From the IMG/VR virus record IMGVR_UViG_3300045988_079259, positions 1 through 51,381 of that record: DNA of 51,381 nt; one strand, 5' to 3'. Position 1 is the stretch's first letter. Every line of letters starts with the position of its first letter. The position numbers and the translations under genes were made by a program. Positions 8,007 to 51,381 of this stretch are shown piece after piece. The notes under the pieces were generated by a model. The model was not told the origin of the DNA, ran no database searches, and saw nothing but the letters and a program-made list of their open reading frames with translations. The stretch is from a virus.

Positions 8007-10913
8007 TTAACCACCCGTAACCTGTTCAACCATCTTCTGGGAGCGTTTTACCGCGCGTCCCAAAGCGACAGACGGAGAAATCGAAAGTTCCTTGTCAGCA
8101 ATCTTTTGTAACAGTCTGTTTTGTTCTCTGAGAAGTTTGTTCTGCTCTGCGGTATCCTTGTCCGAGCCGGAACTGTTCGCGCGGAGTACGCCGTTCATAG
8201 CGTTTGTGACACCTGCCTGAATGCCCGCTATAATCTGACCGTTGTTCGCAACAGCGTTTCTGCCGCCTATAGTGCCTACCAGTTCGGGTCCAGCTTCACG
8301 CGCAACGAATAACTGTCCCATAGTCGGGAAACCGCCGTCCGCAAACTGATTATCGAGAGAACCGAAAAGCAAATCGTCAACAATGGAATCCGTCTTAGTC
8401 TTGCGAATCTTTTCTCTCGCTTCCTCAACCTTGCTGAAATCGGCTTTTACATCAATAGTGACACCTGCGGTCATACCGTCAAGACTGTTCATTTGGTCTT
8501 TGAAAAACTCTACTTTTTTAGTCGCATTATCAAAGTTAGTTTGAGCGTCTTCTATGGCTTGATTGTTGTTGTCCATGGCTTTTTCTGCTTTTTCGAGTGC
8601 TTCTCTGTATTTCGCGAATTCAGTTACACCTTCATCTCCTAAAACCTTAGCGAAAGTTATAGCTGTGCTGTGAGAAGTCGAAAGAGATTCTGTGGTAATT
8701 TCACTGGCATCTTTAACATCAACAAGCCCGCTGTGAGCTTCCCGCAAGAAGTATTGTAATGTCGTGTCATTTTGAATGAGGTCAAACAGCTTTTGCTGAG
8801 ATTCCCTGAATTTGTCTGTAGCTTCTGCGTTTTCAGCTTGGTAGTCTTTTATTCTAACCATTGCGTCTGCCTGCTGCTTATATGCATCTTTGATAACTTC
8901 GCTATAAGCTTGCTGTTTTAGTTGCTTGTCGAGAGCAGTATAAAGGTCTTCAACTTCTTGCCTTGTCCTTGACAGCGAACCGTCGTCGTTTATCGAAATG
9001 TCTATACCCATACCATTTATTTCGGAAATGAGCGTTTTTAATAGTTCTGCTTCTCCGGATGTTCTTTGTTCCTTTGGAATGGAAGCAATATCGAAAGCCG
9101 CGTCAATTATATTTTTCAAATATGCCATTTGACTTTCAACTTCTTTTACAGGAGCGTCAAGATTGTCTATCTCTATAGCTACATCGGCTTCTGTTTTTAA
9201 ATTGAGCTTAGATTTTTCGAAAAGCTCATTCGCTCGCCTGTATAACTCGTCCTGGTTATAGTAAGCCTTTGTCTTCTCGTTGAATCCTATCGTAAACGCA
9301 GTAGCCGCAGTTGCAAGAGTAGCAACCAAACCTATAATCAGTCCAGCCTTGCCCCATTTAACGGTAAGCCCCGCTATAGTAGCAAGCGAGCCGATAACCG
9401 CTTTAAGAATGTTTTCTTTCGTCACTTCACCCGACGCAAGATTCTTTATGCCGTCAAACTCAAACGCAAGTCCCGCAAAAGATATAGCAAGCGTAGCGGA
9501 TGTGCCGAACCCGCCACCGAACAGCTCCGATACCTTTATGCCGAGAAGAGCCGCCACAATTTCTGTTGCATACTCTTTGATTTTCGCCCATGTGTCAAGA
9601 AGTCTGTCCGACCACTCGGTAACGCTTGACGAGATGTTCTCCATTGATACCTCTTCAAACATTCCGCTGTAGTCGGGTGTGGTCTTGCCGGAAGAACTGC
9701 CCGTGCTTGATATAACGTTCAGCTCGTCAAATCCCGCAAGGAGCTGTTTCTGAGCAGCCGCCGAATCCTTAGCCGCTTCCGCATATTCTTTCTGCTGGCG
9801 AATAGCCTTGGTCCACGAAGAAGCACCAGTCATTTTCGCGATAAGCTGATTCAACCAGTTTACACCCTCAACTATTCTGTCGATGAGCGAATCGAATACG
9901 GGAATGAGCGCATTGAGTATCGGAGCTGTCATAGCACCTACAGAGTTTCGGAAATATTGCAGAGAAGTAGCGGCACTGTCCATACTGCTTGCAAAGTCAG
10001 TCCCGACCGCCTTACTGTATTGGTAAAGGTTGTTTACGCCCTCGCTGAATGCCTTGGCAATCTGTTTCAAGAACTCATTCACGGTACGATAACGAAGGAT
10101 TCTTTCAAGTGAACCCGCAACCTTGCCGATAGTCTCGCCGAAAACCGAGTTCTTGAATCTCTTGCTCATCTGTTTGCCGAGGTCTTTTATGGACTTCGCA
10201 GCACCTTTTGCTTTGGCTTTGAGTTCGCCAAATTTCGCCGATATCGAAGCAAGCGGTTTTTCTACGGTGTCGAGTTGTTCCGCGTTTTTGATAAGGCTTT
10301 CGAGTATGTCGCTTTGACTTGTCTCTTTGCCCGCCGACTTGAGTATATCGTCAAACCGCTTCTTCATTGTCGCCGTAGGCTTAGTAAACATTGAATCAAG
10401 CGTCGAATCATACATAGCCTTTTGTATTTCAGCTCTTTGTTTTTTCGCTTTTGCGCTAAACGACTTCCAGTCCATAGGTTCTGACCGTCCGTGAAGCCAT
10501 TCTTCAGAAACGTTTTTTGCTCTTTCTTTTCTTGCTTGAATATAGGCGTTTGTGACCTGTTCAATGTTTTTTAGCTGTTCCGACATATAATCGTCCTCTG
10601 GTTTAGGCACGTTTATCTTCTTCGCCTTTTCCATGCCTTTCATGACGGTAGCGGAGTTTTTCATAACGTCTTTTAACGCACGGTATTTTTTTGTCGCATT
10701 TTCCGTTTCTGTAGCAAGCGATTTTAGAGAAGAAGCTGTTTCCTTTATGTCTTTGCCGCCTAAAAAATTGCTTACCTGCGGCATTGACTTGAAATCTCTC
10801 ATAAGTTCTCTGAGAGGTTCGAGCGTTTTCACAAGATTTTTCAGCGCACTTTCCGCTTTTTTTGTCTCGGCAGTGACTACTATTTGTAGATTGTCTATTG
10901 TTCCGTCAGCCAT
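8007..10913 (-). CDS. tape measure protein
   Basis: About 968 aa. Coiled-coil-rich with a central hydrophobic/Gly-rich block ([28 protein letters not shown]). Located after the G/GT chaperones. AAGGAG RBS before ATG 10913. Confidence 0.85.
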
Positions 10914-11708
10914 TGTTTTTGTTCTCCTTTCCACTGAATTTTTGTCGCATAGCGGAAAGCCACGAGAACGCTTGATTTTGAACTTCCGCTTGTTTTTTAG
11001 CTTTTTCCGCTTCTTCCTCGGCTTTCCTCTGCCTTTCGGTTACGGAATACGGCTTTTCGGGATATTTGCCGGGCTTTGTTCCGCGCTTTGCAAAAGCATG
11101 AAGAATAGGAGCGAGACAACCTACAGCCTCGTATACATAGATTCCTTGTAACCACGCCGCATAATTATCTCGCTCCTGTCTGTATTCTTCTGCTTCTCGG
11201 TAGTAGCGAAGTTCTGTAAAGTCTCCGTTCCAGTATGTGTCATAGGGAACTCCTATAGACATATAGTAGGAGCACATATTATCCGCATACTCCGCAAACC
11301 ACGGCTTGTCAACTGTCGGTTCAGCGTCAGTTATGCCCGTATCGCCGGAAGATGGTGTTATCCCTTCACCGTCTTCCACTTCACGTTTCCCTTGGGAGAC
11401 ATTTCTTCGATTACCTCATTTACCATTCTGAAAAGGATGTCGGAAAGAGTGTTTGCAGTTTCGCCTTCCTCTCCGTCTTCCGAATTGGCAAATTCCTTGT
11501 AAATAGCTATTCTTTCATTTCTCGGTACATTCTTGTGGAAAGCATCGAAAGCCGCACAGAAAAGGTCTTCCTGCGCCGTCAGAAGATGGTCTTCAAGATT
11601 TCCGAAGGAAAATCCGCTCTTCTCAAGTCGTTTGAGCGACGCAATTGTGTAGCCGAGGGTATATGCTGTTCCGTTGTATTCAAACTGAATTGTAGTTCTG
11701 TTAGCCAT
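10906..11708 (-). CDS. tail assembly chaperone, -1 frameshift fusion product (gpGT-like)
   Basis: The 157-aa ORF (10906..11379) lies in the -1 frame relative to the 116-aa ORF. The two overlap at the slippery heptamer 11385..11391. Classic arrangement between the major tail protein and the tape measure. Confidence 0.7.
11358..11708 (-). CDS. tail assembly chaperone (gpG-like)
   Basis: 116-aa acidic ORF immediately downstream of the major tail protein, with an AAAGGAAA RBS. Confidence 0.75.
   Translation of the reverse strand: MANRTTIQFEYNGTAYTLGYTIASLKRLEKSGFSFGNLEDHLLTAQEDLFCAAFDAFHKNVPRNERIAIYKEFANSEDGEEGETANTLSDILFRMVNEVIEEMSPKGNVKWKTVKG
11385..11391 (-). promoter_or_regulatory. -1 programmed ribosomal frameshift slippery heptamer G_GGA_AAC
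   Basis: The minus strand reads CCC AAG GGA AAC GTG. G GGA AAC fits X_XXY_YYZ in the zero frame. The -1 frame is open from 8 codons upstream of the site through to 10906. Confidence 0.7.
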
Positions 11709-25547: not shown

Positions 25548-26198
25548 ATGGCAGAATTTGTAGCAAAAGAAATGAAAGTTAGATCGACGTTTGTCGAGGA
25601 AGTGTTAGGCTAGTCCCCATCAAGCGAGAAAATCTATAGCGAGTACATAGCAAGCAAAGCACCGGACTCGCTTGACACGGAGGACGAAATAGAAGCAATC
25701 GGAAACGAGGAAGACAGAGGCGTGACAGTCTTCCCAAAACAAGACGGTAAACCCGGCGTTTGGGATTACCAAATCAAAGGCGCGTTTAAGGACGCGTGCG
25801 GAGGTCTTTCCCGCGTCAAAACGACGGAATCAGCCAAAATCAAGGCTTACAAAAAGGTAATTGATAAGCTGATATTTGTCGAGCCGCGTTTCGCGCCGTA
25901 TCAAGTCAACGGCGAACTCGGCATATGCGAGCGACCGCTGAGGACGAGCGGCGCGACGGGAGAAAGAACAGCCCTTGCCGCGTCGGAAACTCTTCCCGCC
26001 GGTTCTTCCGTCGAATTCACAATCCTGCTGTTCGATGAAAAACTCGAACCGGCAGTCCGCGAATGGCTTGATTACGGCAAGTACAGCGGTTTCGGACAGT
26101 GGAGAAATTCCGGAAAAGGAAGACATCTGTGGGACGAACTCGACACAGACGGCAATATAATCGGTGGGAACAATGAGTACGTTAAGACAAAGGAATAA
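25548..26198 (+). pseudogene. hypothetical protein gene interrupted by one in-frame TAG (25611..25613); nonsense mutation or read-through
   Basis: ATG 25548 has an AAAGGAA RBS. After 21 codons comes TAG, and the same frame then continues into the 25722..26198 ORF (SPSSEKIYSEYIASKAPDSL...VTVFPKQDGKPGVWDYQIKG...). Confidence 0.5.
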
Positions 26199-26787
26199 GT
26201 CTCTTTACTGGGCATGGAAAGCCATGAAACAGCGGACACAGAACCCTAAATGTCATGCTTACAAAAATTATGGAGCAAGAGGCATCTCGGTTTGCGCGGA
26301 ATGGCAAGCGTTCGAGCCGTTTTGCGAATGGGCGTTGACAAATGGCTATCAACAAGGTCTTGACCTCGACCGCGTAGACAACGACGGAAATTATTGCCCC
26401 GAAAATTGCCGGTGGATAACGCGTCAAGAGAACATAAATAATCGCCGAAAGACGTTGTTCTTTACCGTCGACGGAAAAAGGCTTTCGTGCTCTTCATGGG
26501 CAGAGTTGTCGGGCATTCCACGCGGTTCAATCAAGGTTTGGGCTGAGACAAAAGGATTTTCTTACGCAGAAAAACGCATCAAAGACGCATTGGTCAACGG
26601 ATACGTGCCCAAGGATTACGGGAATCAACGCAAGGCGGTTCGCCATGTTGAGAGTGGTAGAGTTTTCCGCTCGGTTAGAGAGGCTGCTGATTTTTTCCGC
26701 ATTAACAGCGGAGCACTTTCACATTGCATTAACCATACAGGCGGCAAAACCCGTAAAGGCAGATTCACCTGGGAAGAAATCAAATAA
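26173..26787 (+). CDS. homing-endonuclease-like DNA-binding protein (free-standing)
   Basis: The N-terminal pattern YWAWKAMKQRTQNPKCHAYKNYGARGISVCAEW...LDRVDNDGNYCPENCRWITRQENINN and a C-terminal FRSVREAADFFRINSGALSHCI HTH-like module are typical of phage homing-endonuclease relatives. Confidence 0.6.
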   Translation: MSTLRQRNKSLYWAWKAMKQRTQNPKCHAYKNYGARGISVCAEWQAFEPFCEWALTNGYQQGLDLDRVDNDGNYCPENCRWITRQENINNRRKTLFFTVDGKRLSCSSWAELSGIPRGSIKVWAETKGFSYAEKRIKDALVNGYVPKDYGNQRKAVRHVESGRVFRSVREAADFFRINSGALSHCINHTGGKTRKGRFTWEEIK

Positions 26788-26832: not shown

Positions 26833-27480
26833 TCATTCTTCCGCAGTTATATTAACCTGATAATTAGATACAGGGAAATTGTAGTCGCTATCCATAATCG
26901 TAATTGTTGTCGATAAGGTTTTAACCACCACGTAATAAGGAATTTCCGGCTCTCCGAATGAGCGGTAATTCACCGTTTTCTTCGCGTTCGCCGCGCATGA
27001 ACCTCCGAGAGATACGACAGAGTAACTTTCGCCATTTATAGCCACCTCGCCGAAAGATACATCAATTTCCTTATCACATTTGTTTTCGATGGTTACTCTC
27101 ATGCTTCCGACATTCGGAAACCATTCTTTATCAAGAACCGTTCCCTGATATGTGATTTTAGCGTAATCGCCATCGTAAAGCACAGTTCCTTCGGGTATCT
27201 CAACAACCTTTTTGGTTTCGGCGGGGACTTGCTTTCTTATAGTCACAGTGCGCGAGGTTTCTTCGCTTGTCTCAGCCGCCTTTTCAGCTTCCAGCCGAGC
27301 TTGTTCTATGCTCTCTGCTTCCTGTCGTTCCCTGAATTCTTTCACTTTAGCGTCAGACCGCACAGAAGCATAGAAAACAAAAGCTATAGTAAGAATCGGC
27401 AGTATAATCGCTATTGTCCAAAGCGTTCTTTCCCTTTTGAGTTTTCGCCTGTACTTCCGTGCTCTATCTCCATCATCCAT
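26833..27480 (-). CDS. membrane-anchored protein of the lysogeny region (possible exclusion or moron function)
   Basis: 215 aa from ATG 27480. Basic N-terminus, one TM helix (LWTIAIILPILTIAFVFYASV), a coiled segment and then a beta-rich domain. Has its own promoter. Confidence 0.6.
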   Translation of the reverse strand: MDDGDRARKYRRKLKRERTLWTIAIILPILTIAFVFYASVRSDAKVKEFRERQEAESIEQARLEAEKAAETSEETSRTVTIRKQVPAETKKVVEIPEGTVLYDGDYAKITYQGTVLDKEWFPNVGSMRVTIENKCDKEIDVSFGEVAINGESYSVVSLGGSCAANAKKTVNYRSFGEPEIPYYVVVKTLSTTITIMDSDYNFPVSNYQVNITAEE

Positions 27481-27547: not shown

Positions 27548-27576
27548 TTGCATTTTTGTTCAACTTGTGGTATCAT
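27548..27576 (+). promoter_or_regulatory. sigma-A promoter (TTGCAT-17-TATCAT with an extended -10 TG)
   Basis: ttgcatttttgttcaacttgtggtatcat, about 28 nt upstream of the 27604 ATG. Confidence 0.5.
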
Positions 27577-27603
27577 TTTTTCAAAACCGAAAGGAGCATC
27601 AAT

Positions 27604-28068
27604 ATGAAAGTACTGAAAATTTTCCTCGTGTTTCTGCTTGTAATGGTTCTCATGGGCGCGTGTACGTTTTGGCTCAGAGCGAAATGGAATAGGGAATATG
27701 AGCAGGACGAACTCTATAAACGTAGTAGCGAGCTTTACGAAAAATCGAAAGAGAATTTAGCAAAAGAAGAGAGCGCAAGACAAGCGTTAGACCAAATCGG
27801 CAAAGACCTTGAAAGCAAACTTGACCAAATCGACCACGATATGTTTGTGCTTAAATATCTCATCGACGAAGCGTACACTTACAGCGAAAAGCCGGACAAA
27901 ACAGAAGCCGACAAGCTCATCTTAAACGCATTGGTCGAAGAAATAAACGACATGAGCGCAAAGCTGAGTGGAAGCTCGAAAGTAAAACTGAAAATCACCA
28001 TCACGGTTAACGGCAGTATAGCAGAACCCCGCGAAGAAATAGACAAAGAACTCGAAGAATTAGAGTAA
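27604..28068 (+). CDS. membrane/lipoprotein paralogous to a segment of the tape measure protein (candidate superinfection-exclusion factor)
   Basis: 154 aa. N-terminal signal/TM with LMGAC. YEQDELYKRSSELYEKSKENLAKE matches [27 protein letters not shown] (16/24 by hand). Further blocks also match: MFVLKYLIDEAY / [12 protein letters not shown] and LVEEINDMS / LISEINGMG. Confidence 0.75.
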   Translation: MKVLKIFLVFLLVMVLMGACTFWLRAKWNREYEQDELYKRSSELYEKSKENLAKEESARQALDQIGKDLESKLDQIDHDMFVLKYLIDEAYTYSEKPDKTEADKLILNALVEEINDMSAKLSGSSKVKLKITITVNGSIAEPREEIDKELEELE

Positions 28069-28082
28069 AACCAATCAATCCA

Positions 28083-28117
28083 AAAAGAGCAAGGAATTAC
28101 TTCCCTGCTCTTTTTTA
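28083..28117. terminator. bidirectional rho-independent terminator
   Basis: aaagagcaaggaa-ttac-ttccctgctcttttttatt. Nearly identical to the terminator at 43300..43340. Confidence 0.75.
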
Positions 28118-28534
28118 TTTGCTTTGTTCTTTTGGTTCGCCGCCGCCTGCTTGTTTTCGCCATTTCGCGACGTTCAAAGCGAATTTCTCTATCACTTTCC
28201 AGTCTTCCGGCTCAAGCTCGGCAAGTGCCATCACAAATTGCTTCACAAAAGATTCATCGGATTCATTCACTAATTTTCCGAACGCATCTATCAATGCATC
28301 TTCTGTGTCTTTCGGGCGGAACATATCTCCCTTGCCCGTTCTAAGCCAATTTTCGGCAACACCGTATGTATTGCATATATCGGAGATAACTCTATCAGTG
28401 ACACCTATTCTGCCTATCTCTATATTGCCTAAGTTCGAACGCGATATGTTAATTCCCGCCGCGAACTCTTCCTGTGTTATCTTGCAGGCTTTTCTGACAG
28501 CGCGGATTCTTTCACTGATTTTATCTTCGCTCAT
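28115..28534 (-). CDS. XRE-family HTH repressor (cI-like)
   Basis: 139 aa. The HTH region is IRAVRKACKITQEEFAAGINISRSNLGNIEIGR. Divergent from the early promoter. Confidence 0.8.
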   Translation of the reverse strand: MSEDKISERIRAVRKACKITQEEFAAGINISRSNLGNIEIGRIGVTDRVISDICNTYGVAENWLRTGKGDMFRPKDTEDALIDAFGKLVNESDESFVKQFVMALAELEPEDWKVIEKFALNVAKWRKQAGGGEPKEQSK

Positions 28535-28562: not shown

Positions 28563-28591
28563 ATTATACCATCATTGCAATTGTTTGTCAA
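28563..28591 (-). promoter_or_regulatory. consensus sigma-A promoter of the repressor gene, with palindrome ATTGCAAT in the spacer
   Basis: Minus strand: TTGACAAACAATTGCAATGATGGTATAAT. The palindrome CAATGACATTG lies adjacent at 28590..28600. Confidence 0.8.
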
Positions 28592-28635
28592 TGACATTGG
28601 ATAAAAATATTTTTTTATTTTTTGCTCGTAAATGC

Positions 28636-28664
28636 TTGACAAGCGCATTTAAGAGTGATATAAT
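28636..28664 (+). promoter_or_regulatory. consensus early promoter (TTGACA-17-TATAAT)
   Basis: ttgacaagcgcatttaagagtgatataat. The inverted repeat AAATGC-N9-GCATTT straddles the -35 box. Confidence 0.8.
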
Positions 28665-41039: not shown

Positions 41040-41159
41040 ATGCCAATAAGAGGAATTATCGTCATAATTATAGTCGCAGTTTCTCTCGGTTTGTTCGAGG
41101 GAGAAAACATAATAAACTTTTTCAAAAACTTAAACGATAAAGGAGATAACGAAAAATGA
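41040..41159 (+). CDS. small membrane protein (1 TM)
   Basis: 39 aa (MPIRGIIVIIIVAVSLGLFEGENIINFFKNLNDKGDNEK). AGGAG RBS; ATGA-coupled to the SPFH gene. Not in the track (below 60 aa). Confidence 0.45.
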   Translation: MPIRGIIVIIIVAVSLGLFEGENIINFFKNLNDKGDNEK

Positions 41160-42202
41160 AACAGATTATAGGTGTAATAGTTACTGTATGCGTAGCAGTT
41201 GCTTGTATAGTCGGCTACGCAGTAACACATGAAACCATCCCCGCCGGATATGTCGGCTACGTCTACGACAGAACGGCAACCGCAGAAGATAACGTAATCC
41301 CCGGCACATCGGTTCTCAATACCGAGCGTACAGGCAGAATCTCAATTAACCCCTTTACACAAGAGGTCATTACATATCCAACAACAATCGTCTCAAAGAA
41401 CTGGACAAACATCGGCGAGGGCGACAATAAGAAAGATATGTCAATGCAGATAGCATCTCAGGAAGGTAAGAATATCGACGCGGATATCTATATAAGCGTT
41501 CGTCCGATAGATATCGAAAAAATTATAAAATCGTTCGGTACAAAGTCGTTTGATTCAATTATCGACAACGACATCTACGGTCTTACAAAAGGTAAGCTGT
41601 CAACCGTAACTCAGAACTATTCCGTTTACGATGTACAGGCAAGCCGAAGCGATATCCAGAATCAGGTTTTTGAAGTCCTTAGTAAGAATCTTGTCGAAAC
41701 CTACGGTGTAGAGCTTGTCAGACTTGAAATCGGCACTCTGATTCTCCCGACAGATATAGCGGAAAAAATTGACAGAAAGACAGAAGCGCAGAACGAAGTC
41801 GAACTTGCAAAGCTTGAAAGAGATAAGCAGGACGAAATCAATCAGCAGATAGTCGACGCGCAGAAAGCTCAGTCCGAAAAGGAACTTCTTCAGCGGCAGA
41901 CAGAAGCGGACGCAAAAGCCTACGAAATCACGAGAGAAGCAGAAGCCAACTTAGCCGCACAGGAAGCAGAACTTAAAATAGCAGCTTCAAAGGTTGAACA
42001 GGCGAAGCTCGAAAAGGAAGCCGAACTCGAAAAACAGAAATCCTTTACAGATGAATACTTCCGCGATAAGGAACTTGACGTTCAGAAAGAAGCAGTAAAG
42101 GCAATTAATGGTTCAGTTAAAACGATTATCACATCAGGTGACGGCGAAGGTTACGGAGCATTGTTCGGAATTAAAGAAGTGTTGAACAACATTGAAGAGT
42201 AA
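41156..42202 (+). CDS. SPFH/band-7 (prohibitin/flotillin-like) domain membrane protein
   Basis: 348 aa. N-terminal TM helix, a PAGYVGYVYDR...SVRP...VELVRLEIGTLILP core, then a long Ala/Glu/Lys coiled-coil. Confidence 0.7.
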   Translation: MKQIIGVIVTVCVAVACIVGYAVTHETIPAGYVGYVYDRTATAEDNVIPGTSVLNTERTGRISINPFTQEVITYPTTIVSKNWTNIGEGDNKKDMSMQIASQEGKNIDADIYISVRPIDIEKIIKSFGTKSFDSIIDNDIYGLTKGKLSTVTQNYSVYDVQASRSDIQNQVFEVLSKNLVETYGVELVRLEIGTLILPTDIAEKIDRKTEAQNEVELAKLERDKQDEINQQIVDAQKAQSEKELLQRQTEADAKAYEITREAEANLAAQEAELKIAASKVEQAKLEKEAELEKQKSFTDEYFRDKELDVQKEAVKAINGSVKTIITSGDGEGYGALFGIKEVLNNIEE

Positions 42203-44344: not shown

Positions 44345-44962
44345 TTAATGTTTACTAAATAGCTTTGCAAACCAATTTAACTTACGCTTGTTACCTTGTT
44401 CAACATCGGATTCGTTTGTTGACTCAACGTTATTCTCGTCTGCAACAGTTTTTTTGCCGGCTGAGACGTTCTGTGAGCCGTTCTGTGGCGCATTAACAAA
44501 CTTATCCGATTCACTGACCGCATGGAGCGTTTGTGCCTGCACAGCGGTTTGTAGCGCGTTGTGGGCGAGTTCAGCGAACTTGCTGGCGTAGTCTGCAATC
44601 TGCTTATCACGTTCGTCAAGCATTTCCGTCTTCTGTTTCAGCTCGTCTGCCTGTCTGTCAATTACGTTTCTGAGAGCTTCTACAGTCTCCTGTAGGCTCT
44701 TTATTGTTTCTGCGCTCAAACACTCGTGTCCTTCGTTTTCTTCGCTCTCACAAGCCTGTGGTGCGTCACACGCGGTTTCCGCAACTGCTTCTTGTTTTTT
44801 TGAGTTGCTATATAGTTTCAATGCATCCTCGGAGATTCTTTTTACTCCGTCCTCGCTTGTCACTATATATTCTTCAAGACCGTTCCGCTTAATTCTTTGA
44901 TATACCGATTGACTTGTCACTCCGGCTCTGTCGGCGAATTCGGCTATTGTGAGGTATTTCAT
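44345..44962 (-). CDS. replication-associated HTH/coiled-coil protein downstream of rep
   Basis: 205 aa. MerR/excisionase-like N-terminal HTH (LTIAEFADRAGVTSQSVYQRIKRNGL), a coiled-coil, and a basic hydrophobic C-terminus (KRKLNWFAKLFSKH). ATGA-coupled to rep. Confidence 0.6.
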   Translation of the reverse strand: MKYLTIAEFADRAGVTSQSVYQRIKRNGLEEYIVTSEDGVKRISEDALKLYSNSKKQEAVAETACDAPQACESEENEGHECLSAETIKSLQETVEALRNVIDRQADELKQKTEMLDERDKQIADYASKFAELAHNALQTAVQAQTLHAVSESDKFVNAPQNGSQNVSAGKKTVADENNVESTNESDVEQGNKRKLNWFAKLFSKH

Positions 44963-45651
44963 GGATTGCTCCTTGCTTTTGTGATTGAGAATTTAATATG
45001 AGTTATACTTCTTCCCGTCCGCGTCGGCTCATAGGCTACACGCAAATCACTAACGGCGTTAATTTCGTCAACGGCAGTGTCGATTACGCGCTTGCGAAAA
45101 TCAATAAAATCCGAATAACCGCCTATTTGCATAAGCGTTTTCAAATTTTCAACAGAAACGGTGTACTCGCCTATATTGGCATAGCTTTTAAGTATCTCGT
45201 ACAAACGTATAGTGTGTTTCGATTCCATGTTTAACACGGTTTGAAGCTGATATGCCGTATACGATTCTTTGAGTTCGAGCAAATAAGGCGCTAACCGCTT
45301 GTCAAGCTGAATCCTAACCCGCGATTCATTTTCGTATATTTCCGCGCCCGAAATCCATGCGCATAGCTTTCTTACATTTCCGTCCACTATCCAGAATGAC
45401 TTGTCGCGTATGGATTGCAGCGTTTCACGGAGATTCTTGTAATTCTTGCCGTTTTGAGTAATTCCAAGTGCTTCACACATATCTTGCAGATTGAAATCAT
45501 ACTCATAAAGTTCTTTATCATCTGGTTTTACCTTGCTTATCGTATACAATATGACTTTTTGCTCCTGTGTTGTCATTCCGTATCTTGACTTTTGAATTAG
45601 TTCGTTCTTTTTGACAACCAAATTATTAATTTTTTTATCGCTATTTTCCAT
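44959..45651 (-). CDS. Rep_3-type (RepB-like) theta-replication initiator
   Basis: 230 aa from ATG 45651 (AAGGGAG RBS). The pattern LVVKKNELIQKSRYGMTTQEQKVILYTISKV...ESKHTIRLYEILKSY, with the iteron array directly upstream, is typical of iteron plasmid initiators. Confidence 0.75.
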   Translation of the reverse strand: MENSDKKINNLVVKKNELIQKSRYGMTTQEQKVILYTISKVKPDDKELYEYDFNLQDMCEALGITQNGKNYKNLRETLQSIRDKSFWIVDGNVRKLCAWISGAEIYENESRVRIQLDKRLAPYLLELKESYTAYQLQTVLNMESKHTIRLYEILKSYANIGEYTVSVENLKTLMQIGGYSDFIDFRKRVIDTAVDEINAVSDLRVAYEPTRTGRSITHIKFSITKARSNP

Positions 45652-45752
45652 GGTTACTCCCTTCATGTTGAAATCTCTGTGCAAAACTATGTTGAAAACA
45701 TTGTTGATAACTGCAAAAGAACAATTTTCCCGTGTGTTTTCTCGGTTTTACA

Positions 45753-50656: not shown

Positions 50657-51381
50657 TTAAAATGCAATGATGTTGTTGACCGCACGGCTGCCGCCCGTTG
50701 ACCGTCTCTTGATTCCCTCAACACGGATGTACGAGCCGCCGCCGTCAAGAGCAATAACATTCTCAAAACCTTCACCCTGTATCTTTCGCCAAACCTCGCC
50801 GGACTTGATGTAGTTTGCCGAGGTAGTTTTGAGAGTGAGTACCCATATCTCGCCGCCCCTGATGCCGAGCATGTTTCTCGATGTGCCGTAAGTGGTCGAG
50901 CCGTCCCAGCCCTCCGCGCTCACGTAGCTCATGTCGACAGGTTTTTTGTCGGTCACAACCGGCACACCGCTGATAGCGTACTTGATTCCCGACGGGATTT
51001 TGTCAACGCGCTCGATTGTCGGCTTGCCGGAGTACGGCACGAGCAGGGTAGATACCTTTTTGCCCGCAAACTGCTTTGTCGCATTGTCGGCGATACTGTA
51101 CACAAGGTGGTTTCCGTAGACGTGTTCAAAGAGATTTCCCTTTGCCGCCGCCGGAATGTCCTTGATATCGCAGGCAAGGTTAGCGACAGGGAGCGTGTAC
51201 ACCTCGCCGTCCTCCGAGCGGTAATTTGCGAAGAAGCCGCCGTTGATGTATCTCTTAACACCGCCCTTGCGCTTGTCCGCGTCATGATAGATTATCGCAA
51301 AGTCTTTGGCGCGGGTGTATGTGATGCCGTCCTTGTCGTAGCTGTCTTTGTACACTGTCGGTTTTTTCGGCGCGGATTTGA
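50657..51381 (-). CDS. endolysin, C-terminal part: phosphodiester-glycosidase (NAGPA)-like domain (continues from 1..549 across the junction)
   Basis: No stop between 51355 and the window end. Through the 119-bp overlap it is in frame with the M23 part. YINGGFFANYRSEDG...ALDGGGSYIRVEG is typical of the NAGPA-like family. The whole gene is 1155 nt (384 aa). Confidence 0.7.
   Translation of the reverse strand, partial: KSAPKKPTVYKDSYDKDGITYTRAKDFAIIYHDADKRKGGVKRYINGGFFANYRSEDGEVYTLPVANLACDIKDIPAAAKGNLFEHVYGNHLVYSIADNATKQFAGKKVSTLLVPYSGKPTIERVDKIPSGIKYAISGVPVVTDKKPVDMSYVSAEGWDGSTTYGTSRNMLGIRGGEIWVLTLKTTSANYIKSGEVWRKIQGEGFENVIALDGGGSYIRVEGIKRRSTGGSRAVNNIIAF
51263..51381. repeat. second copy of the 119-bp terminal direct repeat
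   Basis: Identical to 1..119. Confidence 0.95.

Follow-up and report, generated by a model that had tools for sequence, protein, structure and literature searches.

Why should a phage keep, beside its repressor, a small gene for a membrane protein that resembles a piece of its own tape measure protein (TMP)? The question arises from IMG/VR virus record IMGVR_UViG_3300045988_079259, a viral DNA of 51,381 nucleotides (nt), which was analysed over its whole length and is called the window here. The small gene in question (27604..28068) encodes 154 amino acids (aa), and an initial annotation made from the letters of the sequence had proposed that its product is a paralogue of a TMP segment and could be a decoy directed at superinfecting phages. 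Below, the protein and its relatives are called TMP mimics, and P and L numbers are our handles for proteins and loci.

The small protein is a paralogue of a TMP segment

The two genes and the parts of the TMP that enter the comparison are as follows.

27604..28068, plus strand: small gene, 154 aa, the long form of the type 1A TMP mimic, identical to P0001 (open reading frame (ORF) list and TMP match)
8007..10934, minus strand: TMP gene, a 975-aa ORF from GTG (phrog_1535 "tail length tape measure protein", 1.5e-17)
8949..9260, minus strand: TMP segment aa 559-662, homologous to the small protein, at the start of the second variable cassette
9288..9560, minus strand: TMP hydrophobic block, aa 459-549 (hydropathy scan)
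9288..9344, minus strand: last and most hydrophobic TMP helix, aa 531-549, directly before the mimicked segment

A BLASTP comparison of the small protein with the 975-aa TMP ORF gave 60.8 bits, E=1e-15 and 32% identity over 118 columns, with small-protein aa 32-147 aligned to TMP aa 559-662. The matching stretch, which had been located by eye around nt 8935..9270, is thereby placed at nt 8949..9260, and the count of 16 identities in 24 positions reported for the first aligned stretch was correct. The alignment is significant against shuffled sequences: the Smith-Waterman score was 158 as compared with 45.7 ± 6.4 in shuffles (z=17.5), and none of 1000 shuffles scored as high. When aa 541-690 were taken out of the TMP the signal fell to z=0.9, and the similarity is therefore not a general effect of coiled-coil composition. 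The same TMP segment was matched in about 110 TMP relatives, some of them 38% identical overall to the window TMP. In several of these relatives the alignment also covers the N-terminal anchor of the small protein, and motifs of its C-terminal domain are common to 10 TMP types. About 17,000 ORFs of less than 400 aa, taken from 105 related loci, were also screened blind, and TMP matches at E<1e-4 occurred only at the immunity-region site. Loci of more distant relatives of the large terminase subunit (TerL) gave no match between a small and a large ORF, most of these loci ending before the TMP gene. The small protein is confirmed as a true paralogue of the TMP segment that comes after the hydrophobic block, and in the TMP this segment directly follows the helix of aa 531-549, in agreement with the initial annotation.

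The nucleotide sequences of the two genes had been described as visibly related, and here the claim did not hold up well: identity over the aligned codons is 48%, reaching a maximum of 69% in a 12-codon window. Because of this low identity, the derivation must be old and not a recent duplication, and recent gene conversion between the TMP gene and the small gene is ruled out. The possibility that the small protein is itself a TMP was ruled out by its size and locus, as it has 154 aa and is encoded about 17 kilobases (kb) from the TMP gene, adjoining the repressor; it is a paralogue derived from a fragment.

Predicted anatomy of the product

27590..27596, plus strand: ribosome binding site AAAGGAG, 7 nt upstream of the ATG (read from the sequence)
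27619..27675, plus strand: N-terminal hydrophobic anchor, aa 6-24 (Kyte-Doolittle 19-residue mean 2.66)
27688..27825, plus strand: variable allelic patch, aa 29-74, a heptad-patterned juxtamembrane helix (allele comparison)
27826..28065, plus strand: conserved C-terminal domain, aa 75-154 (helix, helix, beta-hairpin, helix), homologous to TMP aa ~595-662

The hydropathy scan found a single hydrophobic segment in the 154-aa product, aa 6-24, and this anchor aligns with the last hydrophobic helix of several TMP types. It contains LMGAC (aa 16-20), which, read as MKVLK...LMGAC, fits the Gram-positive lipobox (regular expression, G+LPP pattern), so that the N-terminal signal or transmembrane segment with LMGAC noted earlier is present as described. 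The stretch MKVLKIFLVFLLVMVLMGAC is the match to the Gram-positive lipoprotein pattern, and phrog_462 "lipoprotein" is a weak PHROG match. The product is possibly a lipoprotein, its cleavage and lipidation being predictions. The charges flanking the anchor (+2 on the N-terminal side, 0 on the C-terminal side) favour an N-in/C-out orientation, a predicted topology that would place the helical body outside the cytoplasm.

The AlphaFold model of the small protein, built from a 15-row alignment, has a mean predicted local distance difference test score (pLDDT) of 82.7, with values of 86-93 across most of the C-terminal domain. It consists of one long helix running from the anchor to aa 94, followed by a helix, a beta-hairpin and a terminal helix. 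The model of the matching TMP segment has the same order of secondary structures, with pLDDT >90 in its compact part, and the juxtamembrane helix is heptad-patterned in mimics and TMPs alike.

Family libraries placed the mimics nowhere else. No significant family was found in Pfam, PADLOC or NCBIfam, and a Pfam scan at E<=0.1 gave a sub-threshold MADF match and nothing else. PHROGs returned weak matches at the level of architecture (spanin or lipoprotein, best E=1.1e-4), and other matches of this kind, to surface-associated and FliL-like proteins, were all far under the cut-offs. A Foldseek search of the model against the PDB gave nothing significant; against BFVD the E-values were not significant and the top matches were mostly TMPs or minor tail proteins.

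A swapped patch in a conserved gene

Read from the ATG at 10913, the window TMP has 968 aa, the same as in close relatives, where its gene lies between those for a DUF5055 protein and a 157-aa protein on one side and that for a DUF6711 protein on the other. We found 254 TMP homologues. The TMPs of this group are mosaic: aa 196-520 and 826-975 are almost invariant, and the two variable cassettes, aa 30-190 and 526-826, each occur in several types. The mimicked segment is the beginning of the second cassette.

Relatives of the small protein (type 1) are confined to the same phage group. A word-indexed search gave five clusters at 90% identity, and an exhaustive profile search with five type 1 proteins through 1.84 billion representative proteins returned 3 representatives, all from this group; TMPs stayed below the reporting level (E<=1e-3) library-wide in that search, and no wider family emerged. 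A tblastn search of 50,697 deposited phage genomes gave no match. The members are carried on phage contigs of about 50 kb, and those with a named source come from human gut metagenomes; one cluster, P0002, has 67 member sequences. Every member read in its context adjoins a repressor, and four relatives at the same site beside the repressor are 87-88% identical to the window protein. Related genomes do carry a TMP-fragment gene beside the repressor, which the initial annotation had suggested looking for, and a second type of such a gene was found at the same site.

The 154-aa alleles 1A (window), 1B and 1C are nearly identical outside aa 29-74. Between alleles, aa 75-154 differ by 7-10 synonymous and 0-2 nonsynonymous changes, and the ratio of nonsynonymous (pN) to synonymous (pS) differences per site, about 0.05-0.07, indicates purifying selection on this part. 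In aa 29-74 pS is 0.57-0.70, which is near saturation, and pN is 0.21-0.23; judged from these values, the patch is a swapped, anciently diverged cassette in an otherwise identical gene. It sits where the TMPs vary too, at the cassette of aa 526-826. The 1A patch has 16 of 31 residues in common with the window-type TMP as compared with 5-10 of 31 with other types. Sibling phages have short forms of 76-77 aa, made of the anchor, the patch and a few C-terminal residues. The window gene contains short direct repeats, for example GACCAAATCGxC and CGAAGAAATAxA, which may promote the in-frame deletions of the short forms.

A second family derived from other TMP types

Type 2, the second small membrane protein, has 73-84 aa and comprises 18 clusters from many contigs of about 50 kb. 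In several sibling phages its gene lies directly upstream of the type 1 gene, in tandem. Over the anchor and juxtamembrane helix type 2 matches TMPs of the P0088/P0094 type (E=2e-18, 41% identity over 85 aa, z=22-24), and against the window-type TMP it gives no match (z=0.7). The juxtamembrane identity of type 2 to P0055/P0094-type TMPs is 53-57%, and that of P0103, another TMP type in this clade, is 37-39%. Type 2 is thus closer to these TMPs than P0103 is and so branches inside the diversity of TMPs. Between types 1 and 2 the identity in this region is only 12-22%, and for this reason they were apparently derived separately, or else converted from different TMP types. Proteins of this kind thus seem to have arisen from different TMP types on at least two occasions, or to have been converted by them. 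Type 2 proteins have no lipobox pattern, and what they have in common with the short type 1 forms is an anchor followed by a heptad-patterned helix of about 50 aa.

Hybrids of the two families also occur. In P0144 (74 aa, 19 contigs) a type 2 N-terminus is followed by the C-terminal "...EEIDKELEELE" of type 1 (compare L111, 1634..2574), and hybrids of this kind point to recombination between the tandem mimic genes at the common EEIDK motif.

Mimic type and the carrier's own TMP

Mimics were paired with the TMP of the same phage in 11 genomes by using the terminase gene as a bridge and by exact-protein look-ups. The pairings, in which W is the TMP type of the window, are counted by locus, and a single phage known from different assemblies may stand behind more than one of them (e.g., L028 and L118).

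1A long, own TMP W, 1 genome (window): match
Type 2 and 1B, own TMP P0094, 1 genome (L111): match, for type 2
Short 1A, own TMP P0016, 3 genomes: no match (z=0-0.5)
Type 2 and short 1C, own TMP W, 2 genomes: no match for type 2 (z=3.1), moderate for short 1C (z=7.0)
Type 2 and short 1C, own TMP P0011, 1 genome: no match, by TMP-type assignment and not by a direct score
Type 2 and short 1C, own TMP P0016, 1 genome: no match (type 2 z=1.1)
Short 1C, own TMP P0016, 1 genome: no match (z=2.0)
1B, own TMP P0088, 1 genome: no clear preference

A clear match between mimic and own TMP was seen in two genomes, the window among them, and in 8 of 10 sibling genomes with both genes readable no mimic clearly matched the own TMP type. 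The description of the protein as a mimic of the phage's own TMP is thus right for the window and does not extend to most siblings. The type of the mimic and that of the own TMP assort independently. The mimic does not strictly co-vary with the TMP of its carrier, since homotypic and heterotypic pairings both exist. Because of the mismatched pairings, and because about half of the close relatives have no mimic at all, the mimic is neither required by nor tied to the TMP of its carrier.

The locus beside the repressor

27548..27576, plus strand: putative promoter of the small gene, TTGCAT-17-TGgTATCAT with an extended -10 (read from the sequence)
28082..28119, unstranded: intrinsic terminator, hairpin and U-run, common to the small gene and the convergent repressor gene (fold and inverted repeat I1)
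28115..28534, minus strand: cI-like HTH_3 repressor gene, convergent with the small gene (PF01381 6.1e-11, phrog_8/phrog_4)
26833..27480, minus strand: gene for a 215-aa membrane-anchored accessory protein, divergent from the small gene (back-to-back promoter 27540->27512)

The neighbour had been called a cI-like repressor, and PF01381 bears this out. The small gene had also been credited with its own promoter and terminator; the terminator stands (-16.5 kcal/mol, z=-5.7 against shuffles), and the promoter is plausible by reading. With a single anchor, a repressor as neighbour, a terminator and a plausible promoter, the gene looks like an independent unit for a small membrane protein. The mimic always adjoins a helix-turn-helix (HTH) repressor, whichever of three repressor types is present. 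The 215-aa protein is found in many, not all, of the mimic-carrying phages and is replaced in other relatives by a secreted Cu_amine_oxidN1-like protein of 233-247 aa (L021, 1847..2548; L024, 2943..3686). The site next to the repressor is an accessory ("moron") slot with variable contents.

The promoter of the repressor is TTGACA-17-TATAAT at 28591->28563. It belongs to a genetic switch (28563..28664) with two perfect divergent TTGACA-17-TATAAT promoters, and the palindrome CTCGTAAATGC-9-GCATTTAAGAG (28625..28655), a candidate operator, overlaps the -35 of the rightward one. When copies of a repressor operator were sought at the small-gene promoter, only partial matches of 6-15 nt were found. 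The promoter of the 215-aa protein gene is TTGACA-17-TAAAAT.

Next to this gene, the stretch 25722..26787 on the plus strand holds an HNH endonuclease gene (26164..26787; phrog_3377 1.4e-45) that has been inserted where the upstream gene has its 3' end. In relatives lacking the HNH gene the upstream gene ends with "...NSGKGRFTWEEIK" (e.g., L006, 8585..9187), and in the window this tail is the C-terminus of the HNH ORF; the arrangement looks like a homing-endonuclease insertion.

Elsewhere in the window, a plasmid-type Rep_3 initiator (PF01051 2.8e-35 and PF21205 1.3e-18) is encoded beside an excisionase-like HTH protein at 44345..45684 (minus strand). An SPFH/Band 7 family protein (41156..42202, plus strand; PF01145 1.6e-13, phrog_200 "lipoprotein") lies among the early genes, and a protein with a NAGPA phosphodiester glycosidase domain (50657..51355, minus strand; PF09992 9.6e-7) lies near the contig end.

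Proposed function and alternatives

What would such a protein do? In our view there is roughly an even chance (a probability of about 0.5) that the mimic is a membrane-anchored poison or decoy, specific for a TMP type, that blocks DNA entry of superinfecting phages. The copied piece comprises the last hydrophobic helix of the TMP, the coiled-coil-prone juxtamembrane helix and the small domain that follows, and the protein is probably made in cells carrying the phage as a prophage or plasmid-prophage. When a related phage injects, its TMP would exit the tail, enter the membrane and build the conduit for the DNA; the resident copy, whose helical part would lie on the outer side of the membrane, would pair with the matching region of the incoming TMP; conduit formation would then be jammed and the DNA kept out, which amounts to superinfection exclusion. 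Helix-helix co-assembly with the incoming TMP seems the most likely mode. Specificity would reside in the variable juxtamembrane helix, and this would be why there are several alleles and a second family, each resembling a different circulating TMP type. We favour exclusion because of the anatomy of the protein, its location, the pattern of selection, the recurrent derivation from TMPs, the independent assortment and the precedents for blocked injection. The decoy idea, as first proposed, gains indirect support from the second mimic family, the swapped patch and the purifying selection, and the hydrophobic regions of TMPs have been proposed as membrane-insertion elements (PMC5099701).

A broader formulation is offered more tentatively: gut siphophages may carry rapidly recombining "poison subunit" genes by the repressor, each copying the anchor and coiled coil of one TMP type and disabling the DNA-entry conduit of matching phages by co-assembly. 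If so, the mosaic cassette of the TMP would be the other side of an arms race.

Several points weigh against the proposal that the mimic excludes phages. Lysogenic expression, topology, TMP binding and exclusion are all inferred: lysogenic expression is assumed from position because the accessory slot adjoins the repressor, and the topology from the charge count and the lipobox pattern. The small-gene promoter is a moderate one, its -35 matching 3 of 6 positions, and because of this the consensus promoter scan did not list it. The host is uncultured and known only from bins of metagenome-assembled genomes labelled Eubacteriales/Oscillospiraceae. No integrase was seen among the window ORFs scanned and the form of lysogeny is likewise deduced; from this and from the Rep_3 initiator, the phage may be maintained as a plasmid-prophage (phage-plasmid). 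Among the TMP types sampled, none is a clear counterpart of alleles 1B and 1C, and P0016, the type found most often, lacks a specific mimic. A different secreted protein takes the place of the mimic in about half of the close relatives, and the short forms could be decayed alleles and not minimal functional units. The role of the TMP hydrophobic segments in membrane insertion is itself debated, and in TP901-1 the loss of the second hydrophobic region of the TMP had little effect (PMC5099701).

A related explanation, which we regard as unlikely, is that the mimic competes for a host factor by occupying the host membrane protein on which the TMP segment docks for DNA entry, and this too would be superinfection exclusion. 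PtsG and ManYZ are examples of host membrane proteins that serve the DNA entry of HK97 and lambda. The anatomy and location that suggest pairing with the incoming TMP fit this explanation equally, and the conserved C-terminal domain (pN/pS ~0.05) could be a binding module. Coliphage TMPs are known to act together with host proteins of the inner membrane (PMC13190303; Cumby 2015, as cited in PMC11364771). However, the forms found in most genomes have no C-terminal domain, only the anchor and the heptad helix, which suits helix-helix pairing better than docking on a host protein; moreover, the variable patch mirrors the TMP types, whereas a host factor would be expected to be constant.

It also seems unlikely that the protein is a host-directed accessory membrane protein, concerned for instance with the envelope, adhesion or stress, that was built from a recycled TMP fragment and has nothing to do with exclusion. 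The slot does hold unrelated secreted or membrane proteins in relatives, and the sub-cut-off matches to surface-associated and FliL-like proteins point the same way. Such a role would, however, leave unexplained why another TMP-fragment protein, of independent derivation, is found at this site and why the variable patch coincides with the variable cassette of the TMP, and the family is confined to this phage group (3 representatives among 1.84 billion proteins).

A role in the phage's own cycle is quite improbable, whether as a helper or regulator of its own TMP (in handling, assembly or ejection) or in lysis timing as a spanin-like protein or holin regulator. The window mimic does match its own TMP type best, and the weak PHROG matches to Rz-like i-spanins (inner-membrane spanins; E=1e-4 to 7e-3) reflect the same architecture of an anchor and a coiled coil. 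Yet the heterotypic pairings disfavour such a role, since most sibling genomes have no clear match to their own TMP (type 2, for example, gives z=1-3), and about half of the close relatives, with near-identical structural genes, have no mimic gene. In addition, the small gene lies outside the late operon and has its own terminator, no o-spanin (outer-membrane spanin) gene is embedded in or adjacent to it among the window ORFs, and the host is apparently a Firmicute, in which spanins are not expected.

Finally, a non-functional remnant left when illegitimate recombination carried a TMP fragment into the immunity region, which the frequent in-frame deletion variants and hybrids and the short direct repeats might suggest, is hardly credible given the intact reading frame, ribosome binding site and terminator, the second family at the same site, the retention of the gene in many independent gut metagenome assemblies (67 members of P0002; 18 clusters of type 2) and, above all, the strong purifying selection, which disfavours decay.

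No description of a mimic, decoy or dominant-negative form of a TMP acting in superinfection exclusion came up in full-text literature searches, and the family libraries contain none, in line with the opinion given when the gene was first annotated. Superinfection exclusion by homotypic mimicry of the injection machinery would thus be a principle not described so far. Prophage proteins that block entry are known, and how they recognise the incoming phage is mostly unclear; if the mimic acts as an exclusion protein, a blocker that copies the invader's TMP segment would provide a simple rule of recognition, in which like pairs with like. The juxtamembrane helix after the TMP hydrophobic block would then be a functionally critical element of the DNA conduit, and the passage of siphophage TMPs across the membrane of Gram-positive hosts is an open question. 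Exclusion specificity would become predictable from sequence in gut phage populations, and TMP mosaicism at this position could be explained. A search for small anchored ORFs near repressors that resemble TMP segments offers a general strategy.

Comparison with known systems

The Rz-type i-spanins resemble the mimic in architecture only, having an anchor and a coiled coil (phrog_2466, E=1.1e-4; long model helix, heptads). They differ in that the mimic gene is not part of a lysis cassette and has no o-spanin partner, and the specific homology of the mimic is to the TMP. Identity as a spanin was ruled out, because no lipoprotein ORF is embedded or adjacent and the neighbours are the repressor and the 215-aa membrane protein.

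Satellites offer a looser parallel. The Staphylococcus aureus pathogenicity islands (SaPIs) and the phage-inducible chromosomal islands (PICIs) encode diverged homologues of capsid or scaffold proteins that interfere with the helper phage through co-assembly. In both cases a mobile element would turn a diverged copy of a virion protein against a competing phage, but the satellite proteins act in the cytoplasm on helper capsid assembly, whereas the proposed site of the mimic is the membrane and the entry apparatus of the incoming phage.

SNIPE is a bacterial membrane defence nuclease (DUF4041, GIY-YIG) that associates with TMPs during injection and cleaves the entering DNA, and in some of its homologues the N-terminal region is homologous to the tail needle of P22 (PMC13190303). 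These homologues have taken up part of a phage penetration protein as an adapter, which is a precedent for borrowing parts of the entry apparatus for defence. The mimics differ in having no effector domain, in being encoded by phages and in copying the TMP itself.

The protein Ltp, from Streptococcus phage TP-J34, prevents the injection of DNA and has the TMP of the incoming phage as its genetic target; like the mimic, it is encoded by a prophage in the lysogeny module near the repressor (PMC3952083, PMC11480721). Both have an N-terminal lipobox anchor and a functional part outside the membrane, as is the case for Ltp and predicted for the mimic. However, the body of Ltp consists of two HTH-like repeat domains (PF07553) that are not derived from a TMP, whereas the body of the mimic is a TMP fragment, and the type 2 mimics have no lipobox. 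Membership in the Ltp family was ruled out, as no PF07553 was detected (Pfam, E<=0.1) and nothing relevant was found in NCBIfam or PADLOC.

HK97 gp15 and the lactococcal Sie2009-type proteins, which stop DNA from entering, are small membrane proteins with a single anchor, each the product of a temperate siphophage moron with its own transcription. To our knowledge, no sequence kinship to a TMP has been reported for either. The mimic resembles them as a small single-anchor protein; the scans of PHROGs, PADLOC and NCBIfam, with no profile for either, gave no match to them, and they are set beside it by description only. In PMC11364771, gp15 is cited as a prophage membrane protein that blocks injection and is linked to TMP-dependent entry. 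By analogy, the mimic would work most like these small membrane exclusion proteins of temperate siphophages, and it would differ from them in being derived from the target itself.

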